38,023 nucleotides of DNA from Acidobacteriota bacterium. GTDB lineage: Bacteria > Acidobacteriota > Blastocatellia > RBC074. This document shows positions 5,391 to 21,801 of the stretch, piece by piece; within the stretch, counting starts at the first letter, position 1, and each line of letters starts with the position of its first letter. The position numbers were made by a program, and so were the translations under genes. The notes under the pieces were generated by a model that was not told where the DNA came from, made no database searches, and saw nothing but the letters and a program-made list of their open reading frames with translations. The stretch spans positions 1-38,023 of the forward strand of contig JANOWX010000554.1 in assembly GCA_031418175.1 (NCBI GenBank), read 5' to 3'.

Positions 5391-6569
5391 CTACAACTTC
5401 CTGAACAACGCCCCGGCAATCGTCAGCCCCGGCCCAAAGGCCAGGCTGCCGACCAGCGTGCCCGCTTTGATTTCAGGCGTCTGCAACATCCGCGCCCAGA
5501 CGTGCGGCAGCGTCGCCGAAGACATATTGCCGTGTTCGAACAGCAGCGCCCGGCTGATAGCGACCTGGTCTTCGCGCAGGCCCAGCAGCGTTTGCACCGA
5601 ATCAATGATGCGCGGCCCGCCGGGATGCACGGCGAAACTGGCGCGGTCGCGCGCCGCTTCATAGCTTTCGCCCGCCTGCGTGAACAGCCGTTGCAAATAG
5701 CCGGGCAAGGCGGCGGCGATCTTTTCGGGCACCTCGCGCGCCAGCGTCATGCGGAAGCCCCATTCCGACGGCACCCAGGTCATGTCGGCCAGGGTGTTCG
5801 GCACGACTTCTTCGCGCACGGCCAGCACTTCAAAGCCTGACGGCGGCGGCGCTTCCTGCAAGGTCAGCGCGTAGCGGATGTGGCCGTCGGCGAACAGGCT
5901 TTGCACGACCAGTTGTTCAGGGCGGTGATCGCGCGGGTTGAAATGCAGCGTGCACAATTCGGTGTGCACGATCTCGGCGCGCCCCTTTTCGGGGAAAGAG
6001 GCCGCGTCGCTTTGCGGATTGAGCAGCAGCCCGCGGGCCACGCGCAAGGCGGGCACGGCGGCATAGCAGCCCATGTGATAAACCTGGGTCGCGCGCGTTT
6101 GCTGGTGCCATTCCTTGGCATCGAGCAGGCGTTGAATTGCGCTGGGCGAGGCGTAACCGGTGCAGGTGACGTGCAACAGATCGGCGGGCGCGGCGCTTTC
6201 ATCCACAAAGAAATCGTTCATTGCGCGGTTCGCCATCTCGGCAAAAAACTGGTTGCGCGCGTCCAGCCCGCGCCCGTCGGCGCTCTCGTGCAGGTTGAAA
6301 ATCTGCATGCGCGGCCAGTCCTGATGCAGAAAATCTTCGAGTTCCGAATAGCGCTTGCCGATGCTCGCGGGCGAACAGCCATAACGCCTGACCAGCCGCT
6401 CCATGCGCTTGAGCCATTCCTGTTCAACCTGGGAATGGCCGTTGGCCCCATTGGCGGTGGCTTCGGCGCGGGCGTGCGCGGCGGCCAGCCAGCTAAAGGC
6501 GTAATCCTGGGTGCGAATGTAGCGCGGGAGGATGACCTTGAAATCAGCGAGATAAGTGCGATGTTTCAT
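5391..6569 (-). CDS. Type III polyketide synthase (chalcone/stilbene synthase superfamily)
   Basis: Active-site Cys context HVTCTGYASP, plus VHPGGPRIID and the C-terminal GFGPGLT signature typical of CHS-like type III PKS. Confidence 0.9.
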   Translation of the reverse strand: MKHRTYLADFKVILPRYIRTQDYAFSWLAAAHARAEATANGANGHSQVEQEWLKRMERLVRRYGCSPASIGKRYSELEDFLHQDWPRMQIFNLHESADGRGLDARNQFFAEMANRAMNDFFVDESAAPADLLHVTCTGYASPSAIQRLLDAKEWHQQTRATQVYHMGCYAAVPALRVARGLLLNPQSDAASFPEKGRAEIVHTELCTLHFNPRDHRPEQLVVQSLFADGHIRYALTLQEAPPPSGFEVLAVREEVVPNTLADMTWVPSEWGFRMTLAREVPEKIAAALPGYLQRLFTQAGESYEAARDRASFAVHPGGPRIIDSVQTLLGLREDQVAISRALLFEHGNMSSATLPHVWARMLQTPEIKAGTLVGSLAFGPGLTIAGALFRKL

Positions 6570-6587
6570 TTGAGTGCCGGTGTCAGT

Positions 6588-6608
6588 GGCCCGACCGTGA
6601 GGGAGGGC
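6588..6608. repeat. Family A repeat, solitary half-site
   Basis: ggcccgaccgtgagggagggc matches the arms of the hairpin at 1-57. Confidence 0.5.
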
Positions 6609-6742
6609 AGACCGGGTGAGGCCAACTCTCGCTTGCGCTCAGGTTTTATTATTGGGGTGAAAGTGTGTCAGCGTTGGGAGTGCGGACAGAACGTCCTCAC
6701 TCCCAGCAAATAGGATTTAGGTCCTCTTGTGCAATAAGCGAT

Positions 6743-6998
6743 TCACGCTGCCTGTTTATACGTCCTCAATTGCCGCCCTAAAGTTTCTACGATCGCGGTC
6801 AACTCGCTGACCTTGAGAGGTAAGTCGCTCACGCCGCCGCGCGCTTCGATCACGTGTGCCAAAGCACGCGGAAACGTGTGCCAAAGCACGCGGAAACGTG
6901 CGCGGGTCTTCATCTGCCAGCGCTGCGCGCAAATAATTGGCCGCCTCTTCCGCCGAAGCCCGCAAATCTTCGTGCAATAATTCCGCCCAAGTCATCAT
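6743..6998 (-). pseudogene. HigA-like addiction-module antidote gene disrupted by a 22-bp tandem duplication
   Basis: ATG 6998 overlaps the toxin stop (ATGA). The N-terminus is MMTWAELLHEDLRASAEEAANYLRAALADEDPR. The duplication at 6854-6897 shifts the frame into an Arg-rich tail ending at 6756. Removing one unit gives a 77-codon ORF ending at TGA 6743-6745 (...ALAHVIEARGGVSDLPLKVSELTAIVETLGRQL...). Confidence 0.65.
6854..6897. repeat. Perfect 2 x 22-bp tandem duplication inside the antitoxin gene
   Basis: gtgtgccaaagcacgcggaaac occurs at 6854-6875 and is repeated exactly at 6876-6897. Confidence 0.95.
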
Positions 6999-7335
6999 GG
7001 CTTTTCCCTTTCCTGATGATCGCGCCAATACTTTTGCGCTTGTTCAATGTCACGCATTTGTGTGCGTTTGTCGCCACCACAAAGCAACAAGATCACCCGT
7101 TGTCCAAGCAACCCGAAATAGACGCGATAACCAGGACCGTAATCAATGCGCAACTCATAAACGCCACCGCCGACGGTCTGTAATCGCCCGGATTCCCTTC
7201 TTCCAAGCGCGTCATTCGGGCGCGGATACGCATTCTGGCTTGCGCGTCAGCCAATGTGCGCAACCATTTAGCAAATGGCCGCGCCCTGGCCGCCGTTTCG
7301 TATATGACAAGCTCTTTCGGCTGACCGTCAAACAT
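6995..7335 (-). pseudogene. HigB/RelE-like addiction-module killer gene with a 1-nt frameshift
   Basis: The N-terminal frame (ATG 7335) reads MFDGQPKELVIYETAARARPFAKWLRTL...RLEEGNPGDYRP. The family-typical continuation GGGVYELRIDYGPGYRVYFGLLGQRVILLLCGGDKRTQMRDIEQAQKYW lies in the neighbouring frame from about 7171 and ends at TGA 6995-6997. The frames differ by one missing base near 7171-7176. Confidence 0.7.
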
Positions 7336-7394
7336 CTGGGCGCCTTGGCTACTTGGTAAATGGTGCACGGACGCGAAGCCGTTACAGCCCTATC

Positions 7395-8624
7395 TCACGC
7401 CCGCTTACGCAATTCGCTGCGTAACGTGCCGCGCGCAACCTCGATCAAGATTTCGGCGTTGGTCACGCGTTGAAAATTCTCAAAGGCCGCCTGCTCCACC
7501 GCCGCCACCAGATTGGCGTGCAAGCCGCGCGCGCCGGTGCCGCGTTTGAGGCTGCGTTCGATGATGAAATCGAGCGCGCCGTCGGTGACATTTAACTGCA
7601 AGCCTTCAAGCTGGAATTCGCGCACGAATTGCGGCAGCACGTTGTCGTGCAAAATCTGTTTGAGCGTCGCCGCCGACAAGGCCTGAAAGCGCACGATGCG
7701 CGCAAACCGCCCCATCAGTTCGGGCAAAAAACCGTAGCGTTGAAAGCCTTCGATCTCTTCCAGCACCGGCGAAGCGGCGGCGCTGCTGTTGGCCTTGTCC
7801 TTAAAGCCGCCCTTGAAGCCAATGGATTTGTTATTCGCCTTGAGCACGTCGTCCATGCCGGAAAAGGTGCCGCAGGCGATAAACGGGATATCGAGCGTCG
7901 AGAGCGGCGCGCGCTGCCCATACGACGAAGCGCCGAAATCCATCGGCACCATCACGTCTTTGCCCTCCAGCATTTTCAGCAATTCGCGCTGCACGCCGTA
8001 ACCCGACACGTCTTTGGTGGTGCCTTCGCCGGCGAAGCGCGCGTTGCTGGTGGACGAGGCCAGTTTGTCGAATTCATCCAGGCAGATCACGCCGCATTGG
8101 GCCAGCAGCAAATCGCCTTCTGCCGCATAAATCAGCCGCGTCAAAATCGTGTGCACGTCATCGCCGACATAACCGCTCTCGGTGAAGCTGGTCACGTCCA
8201 CGATCAGCGTGGGCAAATGAAAAAGTTGTTGAAAGAGCGATTCGACCAAAAACGTCTTGCCGCTGCCCGTCGGCCCGGCCAGCAAGGTGTTTTGTTTGGG
8301 TGGCAACAGGCGGCGCGTTTCGCCGTCCACGTGCAAACGCTTCAAGCGGCGGATGTGCCGATAGGCCATCAGCGACAGCGCGCGGCGCGGTTCGTCCTGC
8401 CCTTTGTAGCCCAACTGTTCCAGCCGCGCGTAAATTTCGGGCGGTGGAATCAGCGGCAACGAACGCACAAATTCGCGCAACCCATCGCGTTCTTGCCGCG
8501 CTGGCGCGCGCTCCGGTTCCATAAACTCATCGTCATCGAAGGGAAAGTTCAACCATACCTCCTGGTCAACTCTGCAATCCGGGACTGTGCGAAAAGTAAT
8601 GTTAGCGTCGGGGGCGCATATCAT
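7395..8624 (-). CDS. ClpX-family AAA+ ATPase paralogue lacking the N-terminal zinc-binding domain
   Basis: Walker A LLAGPTGSGKT, pore loop ESGYVGDDV, Walker B VICLDEFDKL, SIGF at the IGF-loop position, and a ClpX-like C-terminus GTGARGL. There is no C4 zinc finger. ATG 8624 abuts the upstream stop. An alternative ATG is at 8522. Confidence 0.8.
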   Translation of the reverse strand: MICAPDANITFRTVPDCRVDQEVWLNFPFDDDEFMEPERAPARQERDGLREFVRSLPLIPPPEIYARLEQLGYKGQDEPRRALSLMAYRHIRRLKRLHVDGETRRLLPPKQNTLLAGPTGSGKTFLVESLFQQLFHLPTLIVDVTSFTESGYVGDDVHTILTRLIYAAEGDLLLAQCGVICLDEFDKLASSTSNARFAGEGTTKDVSGYGVQRELLKMLEGKDVMVPMDFGASSYGQRAPLSTLDIPFIACGTFSGMDDVLKANNKSIGFKGGFKDKANSSAAASPVLEEIEGFQRYGFLPELMGRFARIVRFQALSAATLKQILHDNVLPQFVREFQLEGLQLNVTDGALDFIIERSLKRGTGARGLHANLVAAVEQAAFENFQRVTNAEILIEVARGTLRSELRKRA

Positions 8625-9932
8625 CTACTTTCGCACGCTGGCGCGCAAATCCTTTTCGGCCCCGTGTTGCGCGTGGCAACTGACACAACGCGCCTGGCCT
8701 GTTTGCAAAGGCTGCGTTTCGGCCATCCTGGTTAGCGCTGCCGCAAAGGCCGGTTGCAAGTTGTGGCATTGCGCGCAGGCTTCGCGCACGTAGCGTTTCA
8801 ACGCCGCGCCCGCTGTGCCGCCCAAATGGCAATCCGCGCATTGCGCGCGGCCCTGTGCCTGGCCTTGTGTGTGCAGCATGTGGAATTGCTCGCGCAGGTT
8901 GTAATCAACGGTGCGCCCCGGCAAGCCATGTTGTTGCCAGGTTGTTTGCGACAACCCCTCCCACAGCCACAGCCCATTCCTGACCGGATAACTCACGGCG
9001 CGCCCGTGCAGCGTTCGACGGCCGCTCTGGTCACTATTCGCCTCGCGCTGCGCTTGATGGCAGTGGGTGCAAACCGCGTTGGCCACCAGGGCCGGTTTGA
9101 ATTCCGCCCCGCGATGTTCGGTGTGGCAAGCGCGGCAACTCAGCCCTACGTTGAAATGCCGCTGCGCAAGCGCGGCCTGAAAAGTTGGCGTCGAATGACA
9201 AGCCGAACACTGCTGCGACATCGTCCCGGTCAGCGTATGGCAGGCGCCGCACGCAGCGCTGGCCTTGCTGGCGACTGTGCTCGTGGCTGGCAAAGTCCCG
9301 GACGCGTGCGCTGCCGACAGCGGCCCCGGCGAGTACACGCGCGGGAAGGCCCACGCCAGCACGGCTGCGCCAAGCAGCGAGAGCGCCACACCCGCTGCCA
9401 ACAAACGCAATGGGCTGCGCCGGGATTGCCCAACAAGCTGTTCGGTCTGCGGTGACTCATTGGGCAGCTTGTTGCGCGCAAACTCGGCCCCGGCGCTTTG
9501 CAGCCGCCGTTCCCAATACCTTTCCAGGATGCGTTCATCGGCGGGCGTGCCAACATAACTCGGCGGTTCGGTTGGCTCAGGATCGGCCAGTGCCAGTGCC
9601 AGCGCGAGCGCAAAATCCACCGTGATTTGCAACGTCGCCTGCTGCACGGCCAGACGCAACAGATACGGGCCGATACGCAGGGTGTCGCCTTCATTCAACG
9701 GCGCTTGCTGGACGGCGGCGTCATTTACCAAGACCGGGCTGGCTGCCGCGTCCGCCAATGCCGAAAGCCAGAATGCGCCGTCGTGGTGCTTGATGCCCGC
9801 GTGCGCCGGCGCGACTGCCGGATGCGGCAATTGCAAATCACTCGTCAGCGCGCGCCCGATCAACAGGCTCTCGCCCGCCAACGCGCTGGCGTCGGCATTG
9901 CGATCGGTACGAATGATGCGAAACGTGTTCAT
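8625..9932 (-). CDS. FHA-like domain / single TM / heptaheme c-type cytochrome fusion
   Basis: The N-terminus LLIGRALTSDLQL...HAGIKHHDGAFWL...GDTLRIGPYLLRL is FHA-like. TM is LRLLAAGVALSLLGAAVLAWAF. Seven CxxCH motifs follow: CGACH, CSACH, CRACH, CTHCH, CADCH, CAQCH, CVSCH. Confidence 0.8.
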   Translation of the reverse strand: MNTFRIIRTDRNADASALAGESLLIGRALTSDLQLPHPAVAPAHAGIKHHDGAFWLSALADAAASPVLVNDAAVQQAPLNEGDTLRIGPYLLRLAVQQATLQITVDFALALALALADPEPTEPPSYVGTPADERILERYWERRLQSAGAEFARNKLPNESPQTEQLVGQSRRSPLRLLAAGVALSLLGAAVLAWAFPRVYSPGPLSAAHASGTLPATSTVASKASAACGACHTLTGTMSQQCSACHSTPTFQAALAQRHFNVGLSCRACHTEHRGAEFKPALVANAVCTHCHQAQREANSDQSGRRTLHGRAVSYPVRNGLWLWEGLSQTTWQQHGLPGRTVDYNLREQFHMLHTQGQAQGRAQCADCHLGGTAGAALKRYVREACAQCHNLQPAFAAALTRMAETQPLQTGQARCVSCHAQHGAEKDLRASVRK

Positions 9933-9938
9933 ACGGGC

Positions 9939-12188
9939 TCAACGCCAACTGAAATAGAGCACTTGCCAAACGTGCAAGCACAACAACGCCAGGAATAACG
10001 CCACGCCGGCCAAATGCGGCCAAATCCAATAGCGCAACAGCCGCTGCCCCGCGATCAAGCGGTTGAGTTGGCGCAACAACCCGGTGTCGCCTGATTCGGC
10101 GGCGCGCAACACCGCCCGGCGCGCCAGCAAATCTTCTAACAGCCAGGGCTGCGCTTCGTGTTTGGTCAACCAACGCGGCGCCAGCACGTTGATCAATTGC
10201 CCCAGCAAGCCGGTCAAACAAACCACCAGCAACGCCAGCGCCAGCAATCTGGTCAACGCTGTGGGCCGCGCCGTCTGGCCCGCCAGCAAACCGTGCCAGA
10301 CAAATAAGAGCAACGTCCACAGGCCAAGGTAATTGTGCGCCAGCAGCCAGTAATGCAAGCGCCCCAGCCGCGCCGTCCGCGCGCGTTTGCGCCACGCATA
10401 CAACCCCGCGCCCAGCAAACCCTCCGTGCCCAGCAAAGCGCTGCCCCAGGCCCAACCGCGCGTTCCGCCATACTCCAGGCCGAATAACGGCTGCGCGCAG
10501 GCCAACAAGAGCAGCAGCAGAATTCCGGCGTTGCCCGCCAGATGAATCAAGCTGACATTGCGGTGCGCGCGCCAGCCTTCGATCAATGGCAGTTTCTTGC
10601 CGCCGCGTTTTTGGTACACCCGCGCCAACCGCGCGGCCTTGATGGAATGCAGTTCGGCGAACTGTTCGTCGGGCACGACGCGCCGCAACGCGCCCGTCGG
10701 GCAATTCTCTTCGCAACCATGGACGTGCGGTTTGCGCGCATCGGCATTGCAAGCCGCGCCTACACACAGATCGCACTTCACCGCCACCGGCGAGCTGTCA
10801 CGCTGACTCTCTTCCCCTCCCTCGGTCTCCCCGTCTCCCGCACCCTCCGTCGCTTCGCGCGCCACCAAAGTAATCGCATCGTAAGGGCACAACGCAGCGC
10901 AATCGCCGCAACCGATGCAGGTTTGGGCGTCAATCTCTACGCGGCCCTCGGGCAAAACCTTGATCGCGTTGACCGGGCAGCCGGTCAGGCAATCCGGCTG
11001 GCGGCAGTGATGACAAGCCGAGGGCACCAGCAATGGTTGCAAGCTGGGCCGCAATGCTGGCGGCCACGCGGCGGGCGGCGCGAGCGCCGTTGTTCGCGTC
11101 AAGCTGAAACCTTTCAATGAGAGCCGCGACTGCCCGTGCAAATCCTGACAGGCCGCCGCACAGTTGCCGCAACGTATGCACGTGCGCGCATCAATCGCTA
11201 ATAGGCTGGCCGTCGCCGCCACGCCGCTGCGGATCAAGGCGGACTGCGCGGCAGCCAGCGGCAGCGGCTGGCGTTGATACGCCTGTTCAGCGGCCGGCGC
11301 CAGCTTTTTCAGGGCGGTGTTGATGTCTTCGCTCAACGCGCCTGTTGCGCGCAACAGCGTGACTGAGATTTCCAACACCTCGGCGCGCGTCAGCAACGTG
11401 CCGGTTTGCGGCCAGGCTAAGTCGCTGGCCGCGCCTTCCAGCCCCAGACAATGGCCCGCGCCCAAATACTCTTCGTGCGCCTGCGCGGCCCAATCCGCAA
11501 TATCGGCGTCGTGCTGGTGCTCTTCGCTGGCCTTGCGCAACTTCAGCCAGCCGGTTTTGAGAATGCACAGCCGCCGTATCGGTTCGCCTTCCTGAAACAG
11601 CACGTGCCCCGGCTCGTACACGCGAAATTGCGAAATCGTGGCGAGCTTGCCCAGGGCTTCGGCATCCAGCCGCGTCGCCACGCCGAGGTCTTGCAAAAAC
11701 AGCGCGCGGCTGTTGCGGCGATAGGCCTTGTCCAGCACCGCGGCGAATTGCGGCAGTTTGCGCAAGAACGGCAGGGCCTGGCGCTGCACCTCCAACACCA
11801 GCACCGGCACGTGCGATGGCGCGCACACCGTCGAAGAGCGCGGCAAATTGGCCAGCACCGACATTTCGCCGAACAGCGAACCGGGCGGCAATTCGCCGAC
11901 CTTTGCATAGCCGCGTTTGACGAATACATCCGCCACCCCTTCGATCACAAAAAAGAAGCGGTCGCCGCCCCACTCGCCTTCGCGCACGATCTCTTCGCCC
12001 GGCTCGTAAGTCAGCAGGCGCAAATGTGGCGCGAGCCGTTGGCCCCCGTATTCACGGCCCTCCAACAGCGCCTGCAATTCGGCGTCAGGCAGACCATGGC
12101 CCGGCGCCAGGCCCGACAATTCGGCCAGCGCGGCAGTCTTCGCTATGGCAGCCAGCACGTCAGCAGGCTCGCGGTGTTCTTGCGGCAT
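9939..12188 (-). CDS. Two cNMP-binding-like domains + four-cluster [4Fe-4S] ferredoxin domain + C-terminal about 5-TM domain
   Basis: cNMP motif GSLFGEMSVLANLPRSSTV, with a second similar module. Cys clusters are CIRCGNCAAAC, CHHCRQPDCLTGCP, CIGCGDCAALCP and CDLC...CEENCP. The C-terminal hydrophobic helices carry several His (LIHLAGN, LLAHNYLG, VWHG, WPHLAG, LHVWQ). Confidence 0.8.
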   Translation of the reverse strand: MPQEHREPADVLAAIAKTAALAELSGLAPGHGLPDAELQALLEGREYGGQRLAPHLRLLTYEPGEEIVREGEWGGDRFFFVIEGVADVFVKRGYAKVGELPPGSLFGEMSVLANLPRSSTVCAPSHVPVLVLEVQRQALPFLRKLPQFAAVLDKAYRRNSRALFLQDLGVATRLDAEALGKLATISQFRVYEPGHVLFQEGEPIRRLCILKTGWLKLRKASEEHQHDADIADWAAQAHEEYLGAGHCLGLEGAASDLAWPQTGTLLTRAEVLEISVTLLRATGALSEDINTALKKLAPAAEQAYQRQPLPLAAAQSALIRSGVAATASLLAIDARTCIRCGNCAAACQDLHGQSRLSLKGFSLTRTTALAPPAAWPPALRPSLQPLLVPSACHHCRQPDCLTGCPVNAIKVLPEGRVEIDAQTCIGCGDCAALCPYDAITLVAREATEGAGDGETEGGEESQRDSSPVAVKCDLCVGAACNADARKPHVHGCEENCPTGALRRVVPDEQFAELHSIKAARLARVYQKRGGKKLPLIEGWRAHRNVSLIHLAGNAGILLLLLLACAQPLFGLEYGGTRGWAWGSALLGTEGLLGAGLYAWRKRARTARLGRLHYWLLAHNYLGLWTLLLFVWHGLLAGQTARPTALTRLLALALLVVCLTGLLGQLINVLAPRWLTKHEAQPWLLEDLLARRAVLRAAESGDTGLLRQLNRLIAGQRLLRYWIWPHLAGVALFLALLCLHVWQVLYFSWR

Positions 12189-12282
12189 AGACTTCAGAAG
12201 TGTGGGGTGAAACTGCTTGCTAAAGGGAGAAGCACTTTACGGAGTGGTCTTTGTACTGTAAAGCGCGCGGCTTGCCAAGTGC

Positions 12283-12416
12283 CCTGGGTACGCACGGCTT
12301 CCAGCCTGCGGGCGTGGCGGCAGACCGATTGGCGCTGAAAGGAAACCCGCCGGCATATTTCCGTCTCACGCCAATCCGCACGCCAATCCGCACGCTGGAA
12401 GCGGTGCGTACCCAGG
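12283..12416. repeat. MITE/REP-like element bounded by about 27-bp inverted repeats (family B)
   Basis: cctgggtacgcacggcttccagcctgcg (12283-12310) pairs with gcacgctggaagcggtgcgtacccagg (12390-12416), 2 mismatches. It contains an internal 12-bp tandem cgccaatccgca x2 (12369-12392). The second copy is at 17777-17877. Confidence 0.7.
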
Positions 12417-12501
12417 TTTGCTTGCGGCGCGCGCGGGGCGTCACTACAATGCATTCGCAATTTCCCATTCACCAATGTTCGCTGCACACAGGTTCACGCT
12501 T

Positions 12502-14769
12502 ATGAAATCAAACGCCAAACGCTTTTTCGTCACGCTCTTCGCCCTCGGTTTCGTCACGCTGCTGGTCTGGCAACGTAACCCGGCCGCTGCGGCTGCCACT
12601 GCTAACTCGTCGAATGCCGCTAAACGCACGCAAGGCACACCGACTTTCAACAAAGAGGTCGTGCGCCTATTTCAAAAGAATTGCCAAAGCTGCCACCACC
12701 CCGGCGACATCGCGCCTTTCTCGTTGATGAGCTACAAAGAAGCGCGCCCCTGGGCCGTCTCGATTCGTGAAGCGGTCGTGACCAAAAGCATGCCGCCGTG
12801 GAAGCCGCAACCCGGCTGCGGCGATTTCAAAGACCAGCGCGCGCTGACGCAGGATGAGATCAATACCATCGCCGCCTGGGCGGACGCGGGCGCGCCCGAA
12901 GGCAACGCTGCCGACATGCCGAAGGCGCAGGAATTCCCCGATGGCTGGGCGCTGGGCGCGCCTGATTTCATCGCGACGCCGGCAGAGAGCTTCACGCCGC
13001 CGCAAGGCAAAGACACCTATCGCTGTTTCGTCGTGCCGACGGCGCAATTGCGCGGCGACCGTTGGATTCAGGGCTTGGATGTGCGGCCCGGCAACAGCAA
13101 GATCGTGCATCACGTGATCGCCTATGCCGACCCGCTGGGCAAATCAATCGCGTTGGATCAGCAGGAAGCCGGTCCCGGCTACACCTGTTTCGGCGGGCCG
13201 GGCTTCGACATTTCGCTGGGCATCAATGAAATTCTGGCGGGCAATTCGCCGATGCTGGGCGGTTGGGCGCCCGGTTCGCGCGGCTATTTCGCGCCCGAAG
13301 GCAATGGCATCAAGCTGCCCAGCAATGCGAACGCGCGCGTCGTCTTGCAAGTGCATTACCATCCGACCGGCCAACCCGAAACCGACCGCACCTCGGTGGG
13401 TTTCTATTTCGCGCAAAAACCTGTCGCGAAAGCGATGCTGCCGTTGCCGCTGGTCAATCAAACCTTCACCATTCCGGCGGGCGCAAAAGCGCATCCGGTG
13501 ACGGCACGGTTCACCGCGACCGGTTTCGCGGGCAAAATTCTGGGCATCACGCCGCACATGCATTTGCTGGGCAAACAAATCAAAGTCGAAATGACGCAAC
13601 CGGGCCAGCCGACGCAATGTCTGGTCAACATCCCAAAGTGGGATTTCAATTGGCAGGGTTCGTATCTTTACCAAAACGCGATCTCCTTCGCGGCCAACTC
13701 ACGCATTGATTTGAGCTGCGTCTTCGACAACTCGGCGGACAATCCGTATCAGCCGAACAACCCGCCAAAGCCTGTGAAATGGGGCGAAGAAACGACCGAC
13801 GAAATGGCGCTGGCCTTCATCGCCTTCACGCTGGATGCGTTGACGCTGCCAACTTCGTCGCCGCAACTGACCGAAGTAAGCGCCGATGACAAAGGCAATC
13901 TGTTCGTCAACGGCATCAACTTCCTGGCGGGCGCGGACATTGAGGTCAACGGCCAGCGCCTCGCTGACACACAAGCTGACGCGAGCGGCAAAATCTTTTC
14001 CGGCAATCAATGGAAGGTCTTCGCCGCGCCCGGTCAGAGCGTCAACGTGACCGTCATCAACCCCGACGGCGTGCGCACCGCCGCGCGCACCTTCACCCGC
14101 AACGTGACCGCACGCACAGTGGCTGCCGTTTCAGCAGCCAGTTACGCCGCGAACGCCATCGCGCCCGAAAGCATCGTCGCGGCCTTTGGCGAATATCTGG
14201 CCAGCGGCAATGCCAGCGCCAGCGCCACGCCGCTGCCCACCGAACTGGCGGGCACGACGGTGCGCGTCAACGGCATCCTGGCGCCGCTGTTTTTTGTCTC
14301 GCGGCAACAACTCAATTTCCAGATTCCCTTCGGTGTGACGTCCGGCAACGCCGTGATTGAAGTGATGACCAGCGACGGCCAGCTTTCGCGCAACACGCTG
14401 ACGCTCAGCGCGATTGCGCCGAGCCTGTTCACGGCCAACGCGTCAGGCACCGGCGTGCCCGTGGGCGTCGTCTCGCCCGACGGCATTGGTTTTTATCCGA
14501 TCAGCAATGCGGATGGCACGCCCATCGCGCTGAATGGCGGCGATTATCTGGTGCTCTTCGGCACCGGCTTCCGCCGCGCGGCGACTGAGACCGTCGAGAT
14601 CACCATCGGCGGCCGCAAAGTCCCGACGATTTACACCGGCGCGCAAGGGGGCCTGGTCGGCGTGGATCAACTCAACACCGAATTGCCGAAGGATGTTTCG
14701 GGCTTGGTGGATTTGGTGCTGACGGTGAACGGGCGACAGGCGAATGTGGTGAAGTTGCGGTTGAAATAA
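12502..14769 (+). CDS. Exported heme-c domain + PHM/DBH-like type II copper monooxygenase core + IPT-like segment + Soli_cterm-like domain (paralogue 1)
   Basis: Signal/anchor MKSNAKRFFVTLFALGFVTLLVW. Heme motif CQSCH with downstream MPPW. Copper-ligand pattern HHVIAY, QVHYH, PHMHLLG, TDEM. The C-terminal SAASYAANAIAPESIVAAFG...LAGTTVRVNGILAPLFFVSRQQLNFQIP... resembles TIGR03437 as I recall it. Confidence 0.75.
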   Translation: MKSNAKRFFVTLFALGFVTLLVWQRNPAAAAATANSSNAAKRTQGTPTFNKEVVRLFQKNCQSCHHPGDIAPFSLMSYKEARPWAVSIREAVVTKSMPPWKPQPGCGDFKDQRALTQDEINTIAAWADAGAPEGNAADMPKAQEFPDGWALGAPDFIATPAESFTPPQGKDTYRCFVVPTAQLRGDRWIQGLDVRPGNSKIVHHVIAYADPLGKSIALDQQEAGPGYTCFGGPGFDISLGINEILAGNSPMLGGWAPGSRGYFAPEGNGIKLPSNANARVVLQVHYHPTGQPETDRTSVGFYFAQKPVAKAMLPLPLVNQTFTIPAGAKAHPVTARFTATGFAGKILGITPHMHLLGKQIKVEMTQPGQPTQCLVNIPKWDFNWQGSYLYQNAISFAANSRIDLSCVFDNSADNPYQPNNPPKPVKWGEETTDEMALAFIAFTLDALTLPTSSPQLTEVSADDKGNLFVNGINFLAGADIEVNGQRLADTQADASGKIFSGNQWKVFAAPGQSVNVTVINPDGVRTAARTFTRNVTARTVAAVSAASYAANAIAPESIVAAFGEYLASGNASASATPLPTELAGTTVRVNGILAPLFFVSRQQLNFQIPFGVTSGNAVIEVMTSDGQLSRNTLTLSAIAPSLFTANASGTGVPVGVVSPDGIGFYPISNADGTPIALNGGDYLVLFGTGFRRAATETVEITIGGRKVPTIYTGAQGGLVGVDQLNTELPKDVSGLVDLVLTVNGRQANVVKLRLK

Positions 14770-14781
14770 GCGCATCAGCAT

Positions 14782-15102
14782 ATGACTCCGAAAGTGCAAA
14801 CCATTCTGGCGGAATTGAAGCAGCGGCTGACGGCCATTTACGGCGAGCGGCTGGTCAGACTGGTGCTGTTCGGTTCACAGGCGCGCGGCGACGCCACACC
14901 CGAATCGGATATTGACACGCTGGTGGTTTTACGCGGGCCGGTCAATGCGGGTGAAGAAATCCGGCGCACCAGTTCGTGCGGCGCGGCTTTATCGTTGAAG
15001 CACGACGTGTTGATCTCGTGTGTGTTTGTTTCCGCCGACAGCTTTCGACAGGAGCAAAGTCCGTTATTGCTGAATGTGCAGCGGGAAGGAGTCGCCGTAT
15101 GA
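14782..15102 (+). CDS. Nucleotidyltransferase-domain protein (MNT-type antitoxin)
   Basis: The motif LVLFGSQARGDATPESDIDTLVVL (GSxxRG...DxD) is present. The stop overlaps the HEPN start (ATGA at 15099-15102). Confidence 0.85.
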   Translation: MTPKVQTILAELKQRLTAIYGERLVRLVLFGSQARGDATPESDIDTLVVLRGPVNAGEEIRRTSSCGAALSLKHDVLISCVFVSADSFRQEQSPLLLNVQREGVAV

Positions 15103-15482
15103 CAGCGTCCCAAACCGCACTGGTAGAAAAAGCGCGCGACAGTTTGCGCGCCGCCCGGCTGCTGGCCCAAGGCGGATTGCACGATTTTGCGGTGGGGCGG
15201 GCGTATTACACGATGTTCTATCTGGCCTCGGCGCTGCTGTTGGAACAAGGGCTGACCTTCTCCAAACACGGCTCGACCATCAGCGCCTTTGGTCAGCATT
15301 GGGTAAAAACAGGTCGCCTGGATGCCAAATATCACCGCGCCTTGCGCGAGGCTTATGAAGCACGCATCGTGGGCGATTATCAGGCCACCGCACATTTGAG
15401 CGAAGCTGATGCAGCAACCCAAATCGCACAAGCTGAAGAATTCATGACGATGGCCGAAGCTGTCCTGGCAAGTTTGCCGTAA
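15099..15482 (+). CDS. HEPN-domain protein (toxin partner of MNT)
   Basis: MTASQTALVEKARDSLRAARLL...AVGRAYYTMFYLASALL...YEARIVGDY shows the helical HEPN pattern and is translationally coupled to MNT. Confidence 0.8.
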   Translation: MTASQTALVEKARDSLRAARLLAQGGLHDFAVGRAYYTMFYLASALLLEQGLTFSKHGSTISAFGQHWVKTGRLDAKYHRALREAYEARIVGDYQATAHLSEADAATQIAQAEEFMTMAEAVLASLP

Positions 15483-15513
15483 CTCGCCTTGTCTCTCGCT
15501 TGGAACAAATCGC

Positions 15514-15547
15514 AGGGATTGGGCGTCTGCTCAATCCCTTTTTGTTT
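15514..15547 (+). terminator. Rho-independent terminator after the HEPN gene
   Basis: agggattg (15514-15521) pairs with caatccct (15532-15539) and is followed by tttttgttt. Confidence 0.7.
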
Positions 15548-15620
15548 ACGGAAACGAGCTTGGCGACATCCGCGCAGTCAGAGATAATTGCGCCGCATTA
15601 TCAACAAAGGAGTTGAAATC

Positions 15621-15947
15621 ATGACAGCAATGACTGCAGCAGTTTCCTTGATTGAACTCGATGAACGCGGCAGACCGTGGATCAGCGGGGCCAACACCAA
15701 GGTAATCGAAGTCGCGCTGGACAAGATTGCGTATGGCTGGAGTCCAGATGAGATGCACGAACAGCATCCGCATTTGTCGCTCGCGCAAATCCATGCCGCG
15801 TTGTCCTATTACTATGCGCATCAAGCCGAACTGGACGCTGAGGCGGCGCGCCAAGTCGAAGAGTACGAAGCCTTGCGGGCCGCCGCCCAAAATGATCCGT
15901 TGCAACGCCGCCTGCGTGAACTGCGCTTACAGCAAGCAAAACCATGA
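15621..15947 (+). CDS. DUF433-like protein (antitoxin-like)
   Basis: AAAGGAG precedes ATG 15621. The motif ISGANTKVIEVALDKIAYGWSPDEMHEQHPHLSLAQIHAALSYYYAH is typical of DUF433. The stop overlaps the next start (ATGA at 15944-15947). Confidence 0.75.
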   Translation: MTAMTAAVSLIELDERGRPWISGANTKVIEVALDKIAYGWSPDEMHEQHPHLSLAQIHAALSYYYAHQAELDAEAARQVEEYEALRAAAQNDPLQRRLRELRLQQAKP

Positions 15948-16294
15948 GCCTGGCCCTTTACATGGATGTGCACGTACCTAGCGCCCTCACGGACGGCTTG
16001 CGGCTGCGCGGTGTGGACGTGCTGACGGCCCAGGAAGATGGCACGCGCCGCCTGCCTGATCCGCAATTGCTTGACCGTGCGACTGCGCTCGGACGCTTGC
16101 TGTTTACGGAAGATGATGACCTTTTGCGTGAGGCCAAGAAACGCCTGCAGTCCGGCCAGCCGTTCGCGGGCGTGCTCTATGTCCATCAACAGAAGCTGGT
16201 CATCGGCTCGTGCATCAACGACTTGGAGTTGATTGCGCTAGCCAGCGAACCAGCGGAATGGCTCAATCGCGTGGGCTATCTGCCGTTGAAATAA
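15944..16294 (+). CDS. DUF5615-like PIN-like protein (toxin-like partner of DUF433)
   Basis: MSLALYMDVHVPSALTDGLRLRGVDVLTAQEDG...LLFTEDDDL follows the DUF5615 pattern and has the usual pairing with DUF433. Confidence 0.7.
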   Translation: MSLALYMDVHVPSALTDGLRLRGVDVLTAQEDGTRRLPDPQLLDRATALGRLLFTEDDDLLREAKKRLQSGQPFAGVLYVHQQKLVIGSCINDLELIALASEPAEWLNRVGYLPLK

Positions 16295-16316
16295 ACTGCC
16301 TGGAAGGAATTGCTGC

Positions 16317-17003
16317 ATGCCTGAACAAACCGCCCTCGCCCCCAACCTCGCCGACGCCGTTGAATTCGCCGAGAACCCCGAACCGCGCTGTCCTTGCGTC
16401 TTGCTCGTTGACACCTCCGGCTCGATGCAGGGCGCGCCCATCGCCGCGTTGAATGAAGGCTTGCGCGCTTTCAAAAACGATTTGATGAAGGACGCGCTGG
16501 CCTCGCGCCGCGTCGAAGTCGCCATCGTCACCTTTAGCAGCAACGTGCAGATCGTGCAGGATTTCGTCACCGCCGATCAGTTCGAACCGCCCACGCTGCA
16601 CGCCGAGGGCGCGACGCTGATGGGCAGCGCCATTCATCAGGCGCTGGATTTGCTGGCCGCGCGCAAGGCGCAATACCGCACGAGCGGCGTGGCCTACTAC
16701 CGCCCGTGGGTCTTTCTGATCACCGATGGCGAACCGCAGGGCGAACCCGAAGACGTAATTTTACAAGCCTCCCAACGCATCCGCGATGAGGAGCAGAACA
16801 AGCGCGTGGCCTTTTTCGCCGTCGGCATCGAAGAGGCCAATCTCGACCGCTTGCGGCAAATCGTCGTGCGCACGCCGGTGCGGCTGATCGGATTGAATTT
16901 CGTCGAGATGTTCGTCTGGCTCTCGCGCAGCACCCAAGCCGTCTCGCATTCACGCGTGGATGAACAAGTCGCACTGCCACCGCCCGGCTGGGGAACAGTA
17001 TGA
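16317..17003 (+). CDS. vWA-domain protein (TerY-like) of a TerY-P-type triad
   Basis: RBS GGAAGGA. MIDAS motif LLVDTSGSM (DxSxS). Further matches are VAIVTFSS and FLITDGEPQG. It overlaps the next gene by 4 nt (ATGA). Confidence 0.85.
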   Translation: MPEQTALAPNLADAVEFAENPEPRCPCVLLVDTSGSMQGAPIAALNEGLRAFKNDLMKDALASRRVEVAIVTFSSNVQIVQDFVTADQFEPPTLHAEGATLMGSAIHQALDLLAARKAQYRTSGVAYYRPWVFLITDGEPQGEPEDVILQASQRIRDEEQNKRVAFFAVGIEEANLDRLRQIVVRTPVRLIGLNFVEMFVWLSRSTQAVSHSRVDEQVALPPPGWGTV

Positions 17004-17770
17004 AGACGGGGGACGGTATGAACGCAGCCTGGCGCGTCATCGGCGCTTCGGTGCAGGGTGTCAGCCACATCAAGAGCGGGCAGCCCTGTCAGGACGCGCA
17101 CGCCTGGGCCGTCTTGCCGGACGGCACGTTGATCGCCGTCGTCGCCGATGGCGCGGGTTCAGCGGCGTTGGCTGAAGTGGGCGCACAACTGGCCGCCAAG
17201 ACGGCAGTGAATTGCTTGCGGCGCGAGTTGATCGAAAACGCCTTGCCTGTGAATGAAGCAGCCTGGCGAGTGCTGTTGTTCGAGGGGTTGAAAGCGGCGC
17301 GGCAACGTTTGGAAGACGAAGCGCAAGAACGCGGCTGTGCCTTGCGCGATTTGGCGGCGACGCTGATCGTGGCCGTCGCCACCGCCGAACTGGCCGCCAC
17401 CGCGCACGTCGGCGATGGCGCGGCGGTGTTGAAAACCGCTGACGAGTTGTTGCTGCTGGCCGCGCCTCAGATGAGCGAATACGTCAACGAGACGACCTTT
17501 CTGGTTTCCGCCGATTATTTGCAGGCGGCGCAATTCGCTTGCTGGCACGGGCGCGTGCGGCAATTGGCGCTGTTCACCGACGGCTTGCAACGGCTGGCGT
17601 TGCAGATGCCGCTGCAACGACCGCACGCGCCGTTCTTTGCGCCGCTGTTTCAGTTCGCGGCGAATGCGGGCGCGGATGCCGAAGCGCAATTGGCCGCGTT
17701 CCTGCATTCCCCGCGCATTGCCGATCGGGCGGATGACGATTTGACCTTGTTGTTGGCGGCGCGCAATTGA
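17000..17770 (+). CDS. PP2C-family protein phosphatase-like protein of the triad
   Basis: The motifs GASVQGVSHIKSGQPCQDA...IAVVADGAGSA...HVGDGAA...LFTDGL form a PP2C-like acidic pattern. An alternative ATG is at 17018. Confidence 0.8.
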   Translation: MKTGDGMNAAWRVIGASVQGVSHIKSGQPCQDAHAWAVLPDGTLIAVVADGAGSAALAEVGAQLAAKTAVNCLRRELIENALPVNEAAWRVLLFEGLKAARQRLEDEAQERGCALRDLAATLIVAVATAELAATAHVGDGAAVLKTADELLLLAAPQMSEYVNETTFLVSADYLQAAQFACWHGRVRQLALFTDGLQRLALQMPLQRPHAPFFAPLFQFAANAGADAEAQLAAFLHSPRIADRADDDLTLLLAARN

Positions 17771-17776
17771 CGCACA

Positions 17777-17877
17777 CCTGGGTACGCACCGCTTCCAGCG
17801 TGCGCGCCGTCAAGTCGGAGCGTTGGCCGGAATGGATCGCTCGCCAGCACTGCACGCTGGAAGCGGTGCTACCCAGG
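17777..17877. repeat. Family B inverted-repeat element inserted between the PP2C and kinase genes
   Basis: cctgggtacgcaccgcttccagcgtgcg (17777-17804) pairs with tgcacgctggaagcggtgctacccagg (17852-17877). The arms match the 12283-12416 element. It fills most of the 116-nt gap in an otherwise overlapping operon. Confidence 0.75.
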
Positions 17878-17886
17878 TTTTCCACG

Positions 17887-20181
17887 ATGTTCCTGCGCCG
17901 CGAAAGCACCCAAGCAATCCTCAACCTGGCCGACAGCGCGCTGCTCGGCACGGGCGGCGAAGCGCGCATTTACAGCGTGCCCAACGAACTTGACCTGGTC
18001 GCCAAAATCTATCACCAACCCGACGAGAGCTACGCGCATAAGCTGGCCGCGATGCTCGCCAATCCGCCGAAAGACCCAGCCAAAGCGCAAAACCACACCT
18101 CCATCGTCTGGCCCACTGAATTGCTGCGTTCGCTCGACGCCAAAAATCAGGTCTGCGGTTTCCTGATGGAACGCGTGCATCGTATGCGCTGTGTGATTGA
18201 TGTCTATCATCCGGGCACGCGGCGGCGGCAAGCGCCGCTGTTCAATTATTCGTACTTGCATCGCACGGCGCGCAATCTGGCGGCGGCGGTGGGCGCACTG
18301 CACGCGGGCGGTTACGTCATCGGCGATGTCAACGAATCGAATGTGCTGGTGTCGGAAACAGCGCTGGTGACGCTGGTGGATACCGATTCGTTTCAGGTGC
18401 GCGACCCGCACAGCGGCGTCGCCTATCGCTGCCCTGTCGGCAAGGCCGAATTCACGCCGCCCGAATTGCAGGGCAAAGTTTTTGCCGAGCTTGACCGCCA
18501 GCCGGAACACGATCTGTTTGGGCTGGCCGTGCTGATCTTTCAGTTGTTGATGGAAGGCACGCATCCGTTCGCCGGTGTTTATACCGGCGCGGGCGAACCG
18601 CCGCCCATCGAGGCGCGCATTCTGGCCGGGCATTTTCCTTATGGCGCGGGCAAGGGCGCGCCGTATCGCCCGATGCCCGCCGCGCCGCCGTTGGGGATGC
18701 TGACGCCGCAACTGCGGCAGTTGTTCATTCGCTGTTTTATCGAAGGCTTACGCCAGCCGCAGGCGCGGCCCAGCGCGCACGCGTGGCAGGAGGCGTTGAA
18801 AGAATCCGAAGCCGCGTTGCGCCCTTGCGCGGCGAATAGCCAGCACCTTTACGGCCAGCATCTGGCTGCCCAGCCTTTATCGGAATGCCCGTGGTGCAAA
18901 CGCGCGCGCCAACTGGGCGGGCGCGACCCCTTCCCTTCGCTGGCGGCGATCAAGCAGGGGCAGCATTTGCAGCGGCTGCCGCGCAAGGCCAGACGTGTGA
19001 TCCATCCGACCTTTGCCACGCAACGCGCGTTGACGACGCACGCGAGTTGGGCCGCGCAACAGTTGAGCGTGCCGGCTTACACGCCGGTGCTGGGGCTGCT
19101 CAATCCGCCGCCTGCCGCGCCCGCACCGACATTGTTCAACAAGCTTTGGAACACGACGCGCTTTGTGCTGACGGGTTTTATGATGGTGCTGATGCTGCAA
19201 AGTTTTTGCGCGCCGGGCATGCAAGAGTTGAGCTATGTCGCGCAACAGGGCGCCGCGCCGCCCCCGCCGCGCTTGCCGTTCACGCGCCCGCAAAAAGTGT
19301 TGACGGGACACAGCGACCGCATCTATGCGTTGGCGGTTGCGCCCGACAACCGTGTGATCGCCACCGGCAGCGCCGACCGCACGGTCAAATTGTGGGACGC
19401 GGCGAGTGGCGACTTAAAACTGACGTTGACCGGCCCGCGCGACGATCTGGCGGCGCTGGCGTTTTCGCCGGATGGCAAATTGCTTGCGGGCGGCACGGGC
19501 GATGCGGCGATTTATCTGTGGGGCACAGAGAGCGGGCAGGTAAAACGCACGTTGAATCGTCACCAGGCGATCGTGACCGCGCTGGTTTTTTCGCCGGATG
19601 GGCAAACGCTGGTTTCGTGCGGCCGCGATCAAAAGATCGTGCAATGGGATGTGCGGACGGGGCGGCCCGTGCGCGAACTGACTTGGGCTTCGCGCTGGAT
19701 GTCCACGGTGCTGTTCACGCCGGATGGGCGGCAGGTGCTGGTGGGCGACGAATACGGCGCGGTGATTGCTTTCGACGCGCAGAGCGGCGCGGTCACGCGC
19801 AATTTTGTCTGGTACGAACAGGTTGGATCGCCGACCGACCGCATCCGCGCGCTGGCGCTGTCACCCGATGGCCAACGCGTCGCTTTTGCCTTCCTGGGCC
19901 GCAAAGTCGAAATCTGGGAGCTGACAACGAAAAAACTTTTGCAGACCTTGCGCGACAGTGCGGGCATCACCAACACCGTGGCCTTTGCGCCCGATGGCCA
20001 GCGCATGCTGAGCGGCAATCACAACGGGACATTCAATCTGTGGGACTTGCAAACAGGCGCGAGCCTGCGCGCGTGGCAATCGCATACGTCGGCGGTGACG
20101 CGGCTGGCGTTCGCGCCTAATGGCAAAATGATCCTTAGCACAGCCGACGGCTCACCCTATGCGGTGAACGTGTTTGAATAG
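17887..20181 (+). CDS. Ser/Thr protein kinase (YegI/TerY-P type) + hydrophobic segment + 7-blade WD40 propeller
   Basis: Kinase motifs are [23 protein letters not shown] and LVDTDSF. The hydrophobic segment is [19 protein letters not shown] (about 19160-19215). Seven WD-like repeats run from [16 protein letters not shown]...VKLWD to the C-terminus. I chose ATG 17887 because the upstream ORF extension only translates the repeat element. Confidence 0.8.
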
Positions 20182-21033: not shown

Positions 21034-21801
21034 ATGAAACTCACCTTACTCGGAACCGGAACCTCGGTCGGCGTGCCGATGATCGGGTGTCACTGCGAAA
21101 CGTGCACGTCCACTGACCCGCGCGACCAGCGTTTGCGCACGGGGCTGCTGGTCGAACACGCCGCGCGCCGCGTGTTGGTGGACATCTCCGCCGATTTCAG
21201 GCAACAGGCCTTGCGCCATCACATTGATAAACTCGACGCGCTGCTCATCACGCATTGCCACGCCGATCACGTCTTCGGCCTGGACGACATTCGCCCCATC
21301 AATTTCAAACACGGCGTGGTGCCGCTTTATGCCAGCGCGCGCACCTGGCGCGATTTGCGGCGCGTGTTTTACTACATCTTCGAGCGTACTTATGCTGGGG
21401 GAGGACTGCCGCAACTTGCACAACACGAATTCGACGGGCCGTTTGAAACCTGCGGGCTGGCGGTCACACCCATCCCCGTCATTCACGGCCACGGCGAAGT
21501 CACGGCGTTTCGCTTCGACGCTGACGGTGTGGCGGCGGCCTTCGTCACCGATTGCAACGAGATTTCCGCCACCTCGCTCGACCAATTGCGCGGCCTCGAT
21601 TTATTGATCCTGGATGCGTTGGGCTTGAAACCGCACCCCACGCACCTGCACTTGGAACAAACGCTGGCCTACATCGCCGACGTCAAACCGCGCCGCGCCT
21701 TGCTCACGCACATCGGCCATCAGATCAAATACGCCGAATGGAGCAAACGCCTGCCTGACGGCGTTGAGCTGGCTTATGACGGATTGCAGGTAGAGCTTTG
21801 A
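21034..21801 (+). CDS. MBL-fold metallo-hydrolase (PhnP/COG1235-like)
   Basis: The start [15 protein letters not shown], the metal motif [14 protein letters not shown] and the overall length fit the family. Confidence 0.8.

Follow-up and report, generated by a model that had tools for sequence, protein, structure and literature searches.

Organization of the Gene Block

The stretch of DNA analyzed here (the window) comprises the 38,023 nucleotides (nt) of contig JANOWX010000554.1 from an Acidobacteriota bacterium (assembly GCA_031418175.1), read on the forward strand. Between positions 14782 and 20181 it contains seven co-oriented open reading frames (ORFs), all on the + strand, the last three of which code for a vWA protein, a PP2C phosphatase, and a kinase fused to a WD40 propeller. 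An earlier note, made from the sequence alone, had described this block as defense-island-like. From the analyses presented below, we consider it probable that these three genes constitute an inherited operon for a receptor-type membrane Ser/Thr kinase of the YegL/PphC/YegI type, carrying toxin–antitoxin (TA)-like inserts. The genes of the block are the following:

14782–15102, + strand: MNT-type minimal nucleotidyltransferase, 106 amino acids (aa); Pfam NTP_transf_2, 2e-11; GSQARGDATPESDID motif
15099–15482, + strand: HEPN-domain protein, 127 aa; Pfam HEPN, 9e-16; ATGA overlap with the MNT gene
15621–15947, + strand: DUF433 protein, 108 aa, putative antitoxin-like partner; Pfam DUF433, 4e-11, 42.9 bits
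15944–16294, + strand: DUF5615/Mut7-C-like PIN-fold protein, 116 aa; Pfam DUF5615, 2e-9 (37.8 bits), and Mut7-C, 1e-4
16317–17003, + strand: YegL-like vWA protein, 228 aa; Pfam VWA, 1.6e-13; metal ion-dependent adhesion site (MIDAS) motif DTSGS
17000–17770, + strand: PphC-like PP2C phosphatase, 256 aa; Pfam PP2C_2, 1.5e-50; ATGA overlap with the vWA gene
17887–20181, + strand: kinase-WD40 protein, 764 aa; homology to YegI; Pfam WD40, 1e-45

All seven same-strand genes listed in the note were found, and the ATGA overlaps it had placed at 15099–15102, 15944–15947, and 17000–17003 were located exactly there when the sequence was read directly. Six of the proteins (MNT, HEPN, DUF433, DUF5615, vWA, and PP2C) scored above the corresponding Pfam gathering thresholds. 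The MNT gene starts 12 nt past the stop codon of an upstream Cu-monooxygenase-like gene, and 22 nt separate the DUF5615 gene from the vWA gene.

The vWA, PP2C, and Kinase Genes Code for a YegL/PphC/YegI-Type Triad

The yegL-pphC-yegJ-yegI locus of Escherichia coli K-12 was used as the reference for comparisons of the triad. All three proteins of the window have homologs in it, encoded in the same order: the vWA protein was 48% identical to YegL (E 3e-67), the PP2C protein 36% identical to PphC (E 2e-43), and the kinase 36% identical to YegI over residues 20–337 (E 4e-53), this last alignment stopping at a CPWC motif common to both proteins. The kinase homology includes a C-x5-H...CPWC zinc knuckle, and in both proteins a hydrophobic segment follows the kinase. 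The likeness extends to the junction of the first two genes, which overlap by 4 nt in the window and also have overlapping coordinates in E. coli. The two loci differ between the phosphatase and kinase genes, where E. coli has yegJ and the window has a hairpin repeat (see below). The intact MIDAS motif VDTSGSM that had been noticed in the vWA protein was present. Assignment of the three ORFs to their families by profile searches succeeded for the vWA protein (VWA) and the phosphatase (PP2C_2), but the kinase domain scored 26.1 bits against Pfam Pkinase, below the cut-off of 31.7; although homologous to YegI, it does not classify as a canonical Pkinase, and its closest relatives are kinases of the YegI type.

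PMC11090510 describes the TerY-P triad as consisting of a TerY-like vWA protein, a PP2C phosphatase, and a kinase bearing a zinc ribbon at its C-terminus, a grouping that goes back to Anantharaman, Iyer, and Aravind (2012) as conveyed in later papers. Since the window codes for a vWA protein, a PP2C phosphatase, and a zinc-ribbon kinase, its triad belongs to this family, and the homology to YegL, PphC, and YegI bore out the TerY-P-type triad proposed earlier. The association of the three genes is widespread. A vWA gene and a PP2C gene precede the kinase gene in the same orientation in 51 of the 72 homologous loci that had enough upstream sequence, these loci coming from several phyla, and also in the annotated loci L001, L002, L007, and L008. 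Many Microcoleus loci contain 3–4 kb of other genes between the phosphatase and kinase genes. Across phyla (loci L026–L105), conservation within the triad was highest for the vWA protein (62–78% identity, versus 52–66% for the kinase domain and 41–55% for the phosphatase). Judged by homology and gene order, the three genes are a YegL/PphC/YegI-type (TerY-P family) signaling operon.

The Operon Is Syntenic Within the Genus and Lies Among Housekeeping Genes

The block is flanked by a cyclic nucleotide monophosphate (cNMP)/Fe-S/cytochrome/ClpX-like cluster and by genes for an exported Cu-monooxygenase-like protein, a DUF1844 protein, a metallo-beta-lactamase (MBL)-fold hydrolase, RibF, and an alpha/beta hydrolase. 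In relatives whose kinases are 77–92% identical, the gene order is again Cu-monooxygenase, vWA, PP2C, kinase-WD40. Downstream of the kinase gene, the DUF1844, MBL, and RibF genes recur in locus L002 and genome G005, and different genes are found in L001/G002. The kinase was detected in all eight genomes of the genus and in 17 of 41 related genomes overall. Conserved gene order and retention mark the operon as a chromosomal locus inherited within this Acidobacteriota genus and surrounded by housekeeping genes. A second arrangement was also observed in the genus (L022 of G003, 5922–12689, and L013 of G001), in which the kinase-WD40 gene, about 57–60% identical, is detached from the vWA-PP2C pair; in G003 it lies on the opposite strand, divergent and about 2 kb away, with two unrelated genes in between. 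We also asked whether the operon is functionally linked to the Cu-monooxygenase-like gene upstream of it, and rejected this: the genes are adjacent in four relatives, but not in G003 or in other phyla, and the adjacency was therefore taken as plain synteny.

The best-placed alternative to an inherited signaling operon is that the triad acts as an antiphage TerY-P-type system, in which a periplasmic propeller would sense phage at the envelope, the kinase and vWA protein would trigger a protective or abortive response, and the TA-like modules would be part of the cluster. Gao et al. (2020), as cited in PMC7699616, reported that a TerY-P triad protects against T7-like phages; the note had mentioned this report, which the secondary sources PMC7699616 and PMC11090510 confirm. 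Several features of the locus fit such a role. The MNT protein matched the PADLOC defense candidate PDC-S09 (7e-40), the only strong PADLOC match within the block; the DUF433/DUF5615 pair lies tightly upstream of the vWA gene in two species; and outside the genus the family is patchy. The propeller also diverges faster than its partners, with 60–64% identity in L001 and L002, versus 77–82% for the kinase and 90–95% for the vWA protein. Such faster divergence is expected of a sensor domain and fits environmental and immune sensing alike.

The triad itself was hardly recognized by PADLOC, however. The vWA protein gave only a weak match to TerY (E 2e-3, 15.7 bits), the phosphatase gave no PADLOC match, and the kinase gave none to the TerY-P kinase model, matching generic kinase models only (PD-T4-6 and MkoA, ~1e-5); E. 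coli YegL, PphC, and YegI produced the same weak pattern. In the system tested against phage, the kinase is fused to an OB-fold, according to PMC11090510, whereas the kinase of the window continues into a predicted transmembrane helix and a WD40 propeller. Many of the TerY-P triads described in PMC11090510 and PMC4978471 adjoin McrBC/CoCoNuT, nuclease, or secretion modules, all of which are absent at the window. No defense system was identified by PADLOC in ten flanking proteins, which gave generic-domain matches only, and no defense clusters were found in the annotated neighborhoods of five homologs. The locus is moreover syntenic and retained across the genus, and relatives of the four TA-like genes occur near only 2 of 80 homologous loci. 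Apart from the weak TerY match, the database matches, the kinase OB-fold, and the defense-gene neighborhood of the antiphage TerY-P system were not found here. With housekeeping flanks in which PADLOC found no system, and with relatives that keep the triad without any TA-like pair, the description of the block as defense-island-like did not hold. We regard the antiphage explanation as unlikely; a defense role for the triad is possible but unsupported.

The conserved downstream MBL-fold gene (21034–21801) has an ortholog in L002 (12980–13759) with Pfam Anti-Pycsar_Apyc1 (PF23023) among its matches, which suggests a host cyclic-nucleotide phosphodiesterase-like enzyme. The cNMP-binding domains of an Fe-S/membrane fusion protein (9939–12188, - strand) matched PADLOC Pycsar/TIR effector models (~1e-8); since only the common cyclic-nucleotide-binding domain was covered, this was not taken as evidence of defense.

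The Kinase Is Probably Anchored in the Membrane With Its Propeller Outside the Cytoplasm

In an alignment of 31 sequences, homologs begin at the methionine of MFLRRES, which corresponds to ATG 17887 in the window. The alternative start TTG 17767 was rejected: the 40 codons that it would add at the front cross a dispersed inverted repeat, and homologs have nothing corresponding to them. Because the 5' extension is a repeat element and homologs start at MFLRRES, the gene was set to 17887–20181, with ATG 17887 as its most likely start. An AlphaFold2 model of the protein was built on the 31-sequence alignment (mean predicted local distance difference test score, pLDDT, 79), and the following parts were distinguished:

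17887–18816, + strand: YegI-type Ser/Thr kinase domain, residues 1–310; model pLDDT about 80–90
18817–18921, + strand: zinc knuckle, residues 311–345; C314-x5-H320-x4-H325 ... C334-P-W-C337, then RDPFPS
19132–19221, + strand: predicted helix over the hydrophobic segment, residues 416–445; probable transmembrane anchor, N-in/C-out
19282–20181, + strand: seven-bladed WD40 beta-propeller, residues 466–764 plus stop codon; Pfam WD40, 1e-45; 28 strands

The kinase domain carries the key motifs VAK40IY, GD147VNESN152, VD165TD167SF, and FTPPE; the motifs GDVNESN and DTDSF and the Cys stretch CPWCKR singled out in the earlier note were all present. In the alignment of 31 homologs, the catalytic residues K40, D147, N152, D165, and D167 were invariant, as were the zinc-knuckle residues C314, H320, H325, C334, and C337 and the RDPFPS motif after the knuckle. 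The modeled knuckle consists of two short strands and one helix. A five-residue insertion (AQPLS; 18850–18864, residues ~322–331) precedes CPWC in the knuckle of the window protein and was absent from all 30 aligned homologs. No solved structure of a YegI-type kinase was found, the structure search giving only distant matches to solved kinases. Behind the knuckle, the model shows a disordered basic linker (residues 366–415), a helix at residues 416–440 followed by a second short helix, and a propeller of 28 beta-strands, that is, seven blades, with pLDDT above 90. The order described before, with a Cys-containing stretch, one hydrophobic segment, and seven WD40 blades behind the kinase, was thus recovered both in the sequence and in the model.

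The only hydrophobic segment after the kinase covers residues 426–445 (nt 19162–19221; Kyte-Doolittle mean 1.62). It has K/R residues in front and an acidic residue behind, which predicts an N-in, C-out orientation. The same segment is more hydrophobic in close relatives (means of 1.8–2.1), and, according to the listed segment coordinates, nearly all of 120 homologs have hydrophobic segments at the equivalent place (residues 390–470). In one WD40 clade, the propeller is preceded by a YegI-like double segment, then a positively charged loop, and finally one more hydrophobic segment; this third segment after the charged loop would again leave the propeller outside. The predicted helix and the charge distribution support the extracytoplasmic position of the propeller that had been put forward as a possibility, and the kinase probably crosses the membrane once, with its propeller outside the cytoplasm. 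Most members of the WD40 clade of the window protein have a Cys at the outer end of the segment (FCAPG, FSCSS, SSSCD, RSGCD). A lipobox at LQSFC (residues 435–439, nt 19189–19203) was considered and discarded, positions -3 to -1 being off the usual consensus in the window and in most relatives.

A different topology was weighed, in which the hydrophobic segment fails to span the membrane or, as in two-pass YegI, forms a re-entrant hairpin, and the propeller is a cytoplasmic docking scaffold, as is assumed for PkwA-like fusions. Most known WD40 domains are intracellular, both termini of E. coli YegI are cytoplasmic, and the segment is of borderline hydrophobicity and lies in a helix modeled with low confidence. 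The closest solved propeller, moreover, comes from PkwA, a kinase of Thermomonospora curvata (WD40 domain, 5yzv; template modeling score 0.92, 30% identity), in which a seven-bladed WD40 propeller likewise comes after a Ser/Thr kinase. Nevertheless, a single segment of about 20–25 residues is too short for a hairpin, the charges around it fit N-in, C-out, and the greater hydrophobicity in close relatives and the segment pattern of the other WD40 clade both argue for a propeller outside. PkwA itself differs from the window protein, whose kinase is a divergent YegI-type one rather than a canonical Hanks-type kinase, has a zinc knuckle and a hydrophobic segment between kinase and propeller, and has its own vWA and PP2C partners encoded alongside. 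The window protein also departs from E. coli YegI, which has two membrane passes, a cytoplasmic C-terminal region, and no extracytoplasmic sensor, in having one segment and a WD40 propeller. A cytoplasmic propeller therefore seems quite unlikely to us.

The WD40 Fusion Is an Established Sub-Architecture of the Family

Among the scored candidates of a search with the kinase part only, more than 3,600 were relatives, and architectures were counted in the best 120. About 32 of these were WD40 fusions and about 59 TPR fusions, mostly cyanobacterial; one was an LRR fusion, and the remainder had short or multi-pass membrane tails. The WD40 fusion hence occurs in about a quarter of the close homologs, in at least four phyla, and it accounts for 20 of the 72 loci with enough upstream sequence. 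In the tree of the kinase domain, the window protein belongs to a 23-member clade made up of WD40 fusions (99% support); further WD40 groups branch off at other places in a tree whose backbone did not resolve and which is compatible with a single origin. At least 585 relatives, counting one genome per species, were distributed over Acidobacteriota, Armatimonadota, Cyanobacteria, Planctomycetota, Verrucomicrobia, and Legionellales. From its counts among relatives and loci, the WD40 fusion is an established sub-architecture and not the special variant of the triad for which it had been taken; as judged from architecture and kinase type, it is not an isolated case, nor is it a fusion to a canonical Hanks kinase.

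TA-Like Pairs and a Hairpin Repeat Are Variable Parts of the Locus

The two gene pairs preceding the triad have the domain composition expected of TA-like modules. The MNT protein carries a GS...DxD-type motif (GSQARGDATPESDID) and is paired with a HEPN protein, the domain pair of MntA/HepT (type VII), and DUF433 and DUF5615, both above the Pfam cut-offs, occur in adjacent overlapping genes. Like known MntA/HepT and DUF433/PIN-like pairs, they are two-gene cassettes with 4-nt overlaps, of kinds that are present in many copies per genome and vary between relatives. The MNT protein differs from MntA in scoring below the NCBIfam cut-off (28.6 bits; cut-off 60), and the HEPN protein gave no NCBIfam HepT match; its R-x5-H string RLDAKYH is only a candidate for the catalytic Rx4-6H motif, and the toxin and antitoxin roles are putative.

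Presence of the pairs varies between related loci. L001 and L002 have no TA-like pair between the Cu-monooxygenase and vWA genes. Genome G005 has a positional ortholog of the MNT protein (74.5% identity), and in its locus L021, with a kinase relative 92% identical, the MNT gene is followed by an ORF for a 185-aa hydrophobic membrane protein unrelated to HEPN (7468–8539), so that the HEPN partner has apparently been exchanged or lost in this relative. G003, from a less closely related species of the genus, has the order DUF433-DUF5615-vWA-PP2C, with DUF433 64.5% and DUF5615 57% identical to the window copies. DUF433 proteins had 33 matches in the genome of the window, the best paralog of the window copy being only 35% identical; since this is well below the identity to the G003 copy, the cassette appears to be old at this site and not freshly inserted. 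As for the two intact TA-like modules that the note had placed directly upstream, both domain pairs are there, but they are not general parts of the system: from the comparison of loci, the MNT/HEPN and DUF433/DUF5615 pairs are optional cassettes in a variable slot between the monooxygenase-like gene and the vWA gene.

Putative expression signals were found by consensus scans at the junction of the two cassettes:

15514–15539, + strand: terminator-like hairpin and T-run, an 11-bp stem followed by TTTTTGTTT, 3' of the HEPN gene
15560–15588, + strand: sigma-70-like promoter match TTGGCG-17-GATAAT, 5' of the DUF433 gene

The likeliest start of the DUF433 gene is ATG 15621, with an AAAGGAG site just 5' of it. 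The promoter-like site upstream of DUF433 was the only one found, and transcription of the triad in this genome probably starts from a promoter that the cassette provides. That the DUF433/DUF5615 pair is the functional output, a kinase-controlled RNase in a five-gene system, is very unlikely: this promoter, the lack of a close paralog of the pair in the genome, and the same order with gaps of 11–22 nt to the vWA gene in two species with differing kinase arrangements would fit it, but the pair is absent from L001, L002, G005, and 78 of the 80 other loci, and DUF433 is a 33-copy family in the genome, as expected of free-standing TA-like cassettes.

Between the phosphatase and kinase genes, outside the kinase ORF, lies a further variable element:

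17773–17880, no strand assigned: inverted-repeat element of 108 nt, resembling miniature inverted-repeat transposable elements (MITE) or repetitive extragenic palindromes (REP)

Its inverted arms of about 28 nt (CCTGGGTACGCACCGCTTCCAGCGTGCG) are shared with a second copy at 12283–12416, upstream of the Cu-monooxygenase-like gene, and the repeat had 111 matches in its own genome, many of them at contig ends. As RNA, the element at 17773–17880 is predicted to form a hairpin with a folding energy of -72.8 kcal/mol (z -7.4). Relatives without the repeat have a gap of 18 nt (L001) or unrelated sequence (L021) between the two genes. By this comparison, the hairpin repeat is an insertion between the phosphatase and kinase genes.

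A Proposed Model for the Triad

YegI of E. coli was shown biochemically to be an integral membrane kinase that autophosphorylates and is dephosphorylated by PphC (bioRxiv 10.1101/819920, 10.1101/303594). In an operon for a receptor-type kinase, the seven-bladed propeller would be located in the periplasm and act as the sensor, and binding of a ligand or partner would shift the kinase to another oligomeric state. Facing the cytoplasm, the kinase domain would then autophosphorylate, as YegI does, and the co-translated PP2C phosphatase would reset it in the way that PphC acts on YegI. The MIDAS-bearing vWA protein may serve as cytoplasmic output or adaptor, its metal-dependent binding being under control of phosphorylation. 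Of all this, the homology of the three proteins, their conserved residues and domain architecture, the gene order, and the spread over taxa are observed; the topology, the way of activation, the part played by the vWA protein, and the absence of a defense function are inferences.

Several points weigh against this interpretation. We know of no substrate or signal for any member of the family, E. coli YegI included. The topology is a prediction, with a hydrophobicity of the segment that is borderline and a pLDDT of 50–63 over the helix, and the promoter and terminator were assigned by consensus matches. Conservation of the order DUF433-DUF5615-vWA-PP2C in G003, together with the lack of a close paralog in the genome of the window, exceeds the persistence expected from random insertion. 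Outside the genus, the kinase is distributed as patchily as accessory systems are. Finally, a defense role for this clade is to be kept in mind, since a related triad has been reported as antiphage.

Implications for the Kinase Family

One lesson of this locus is that TA pairs next to a triad should not be read as a defense island where synteny says otherwise. To our knowledge, the receptor-like WD40 variant of the triad is uncharacterized, and we know of no biological role assigned to the YegL/PphC/YegI triad even in E. coli; a remote branch of the family has been reported as antiphage. One could speculate, though we hold it to be improbable, that YegI-type kinases with interchangeable outward repeat domains (WD40, TPR, LRR) form a large class of receptor kinases that signal via vWA and PP2C proteins, akin to the pattern-recognition receptor kinases of plants and animals; the member in the window would then sense a cue at the envelope, such as phage attack or the product of a neighbor, and the tightly linked PIN-like cassette could be an output in some species. 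Family-wide, the kinase is a membrane-anchored module with exchangeable parts behind it, among them WD40, TPR, and LRR domains and multi-pass membrane domains. These exchanged sensor domains offer a handle on what the triads sense and how they signal, and YegI, which lacks an ectodomain, is harder to study than the variants in which one is obvious.

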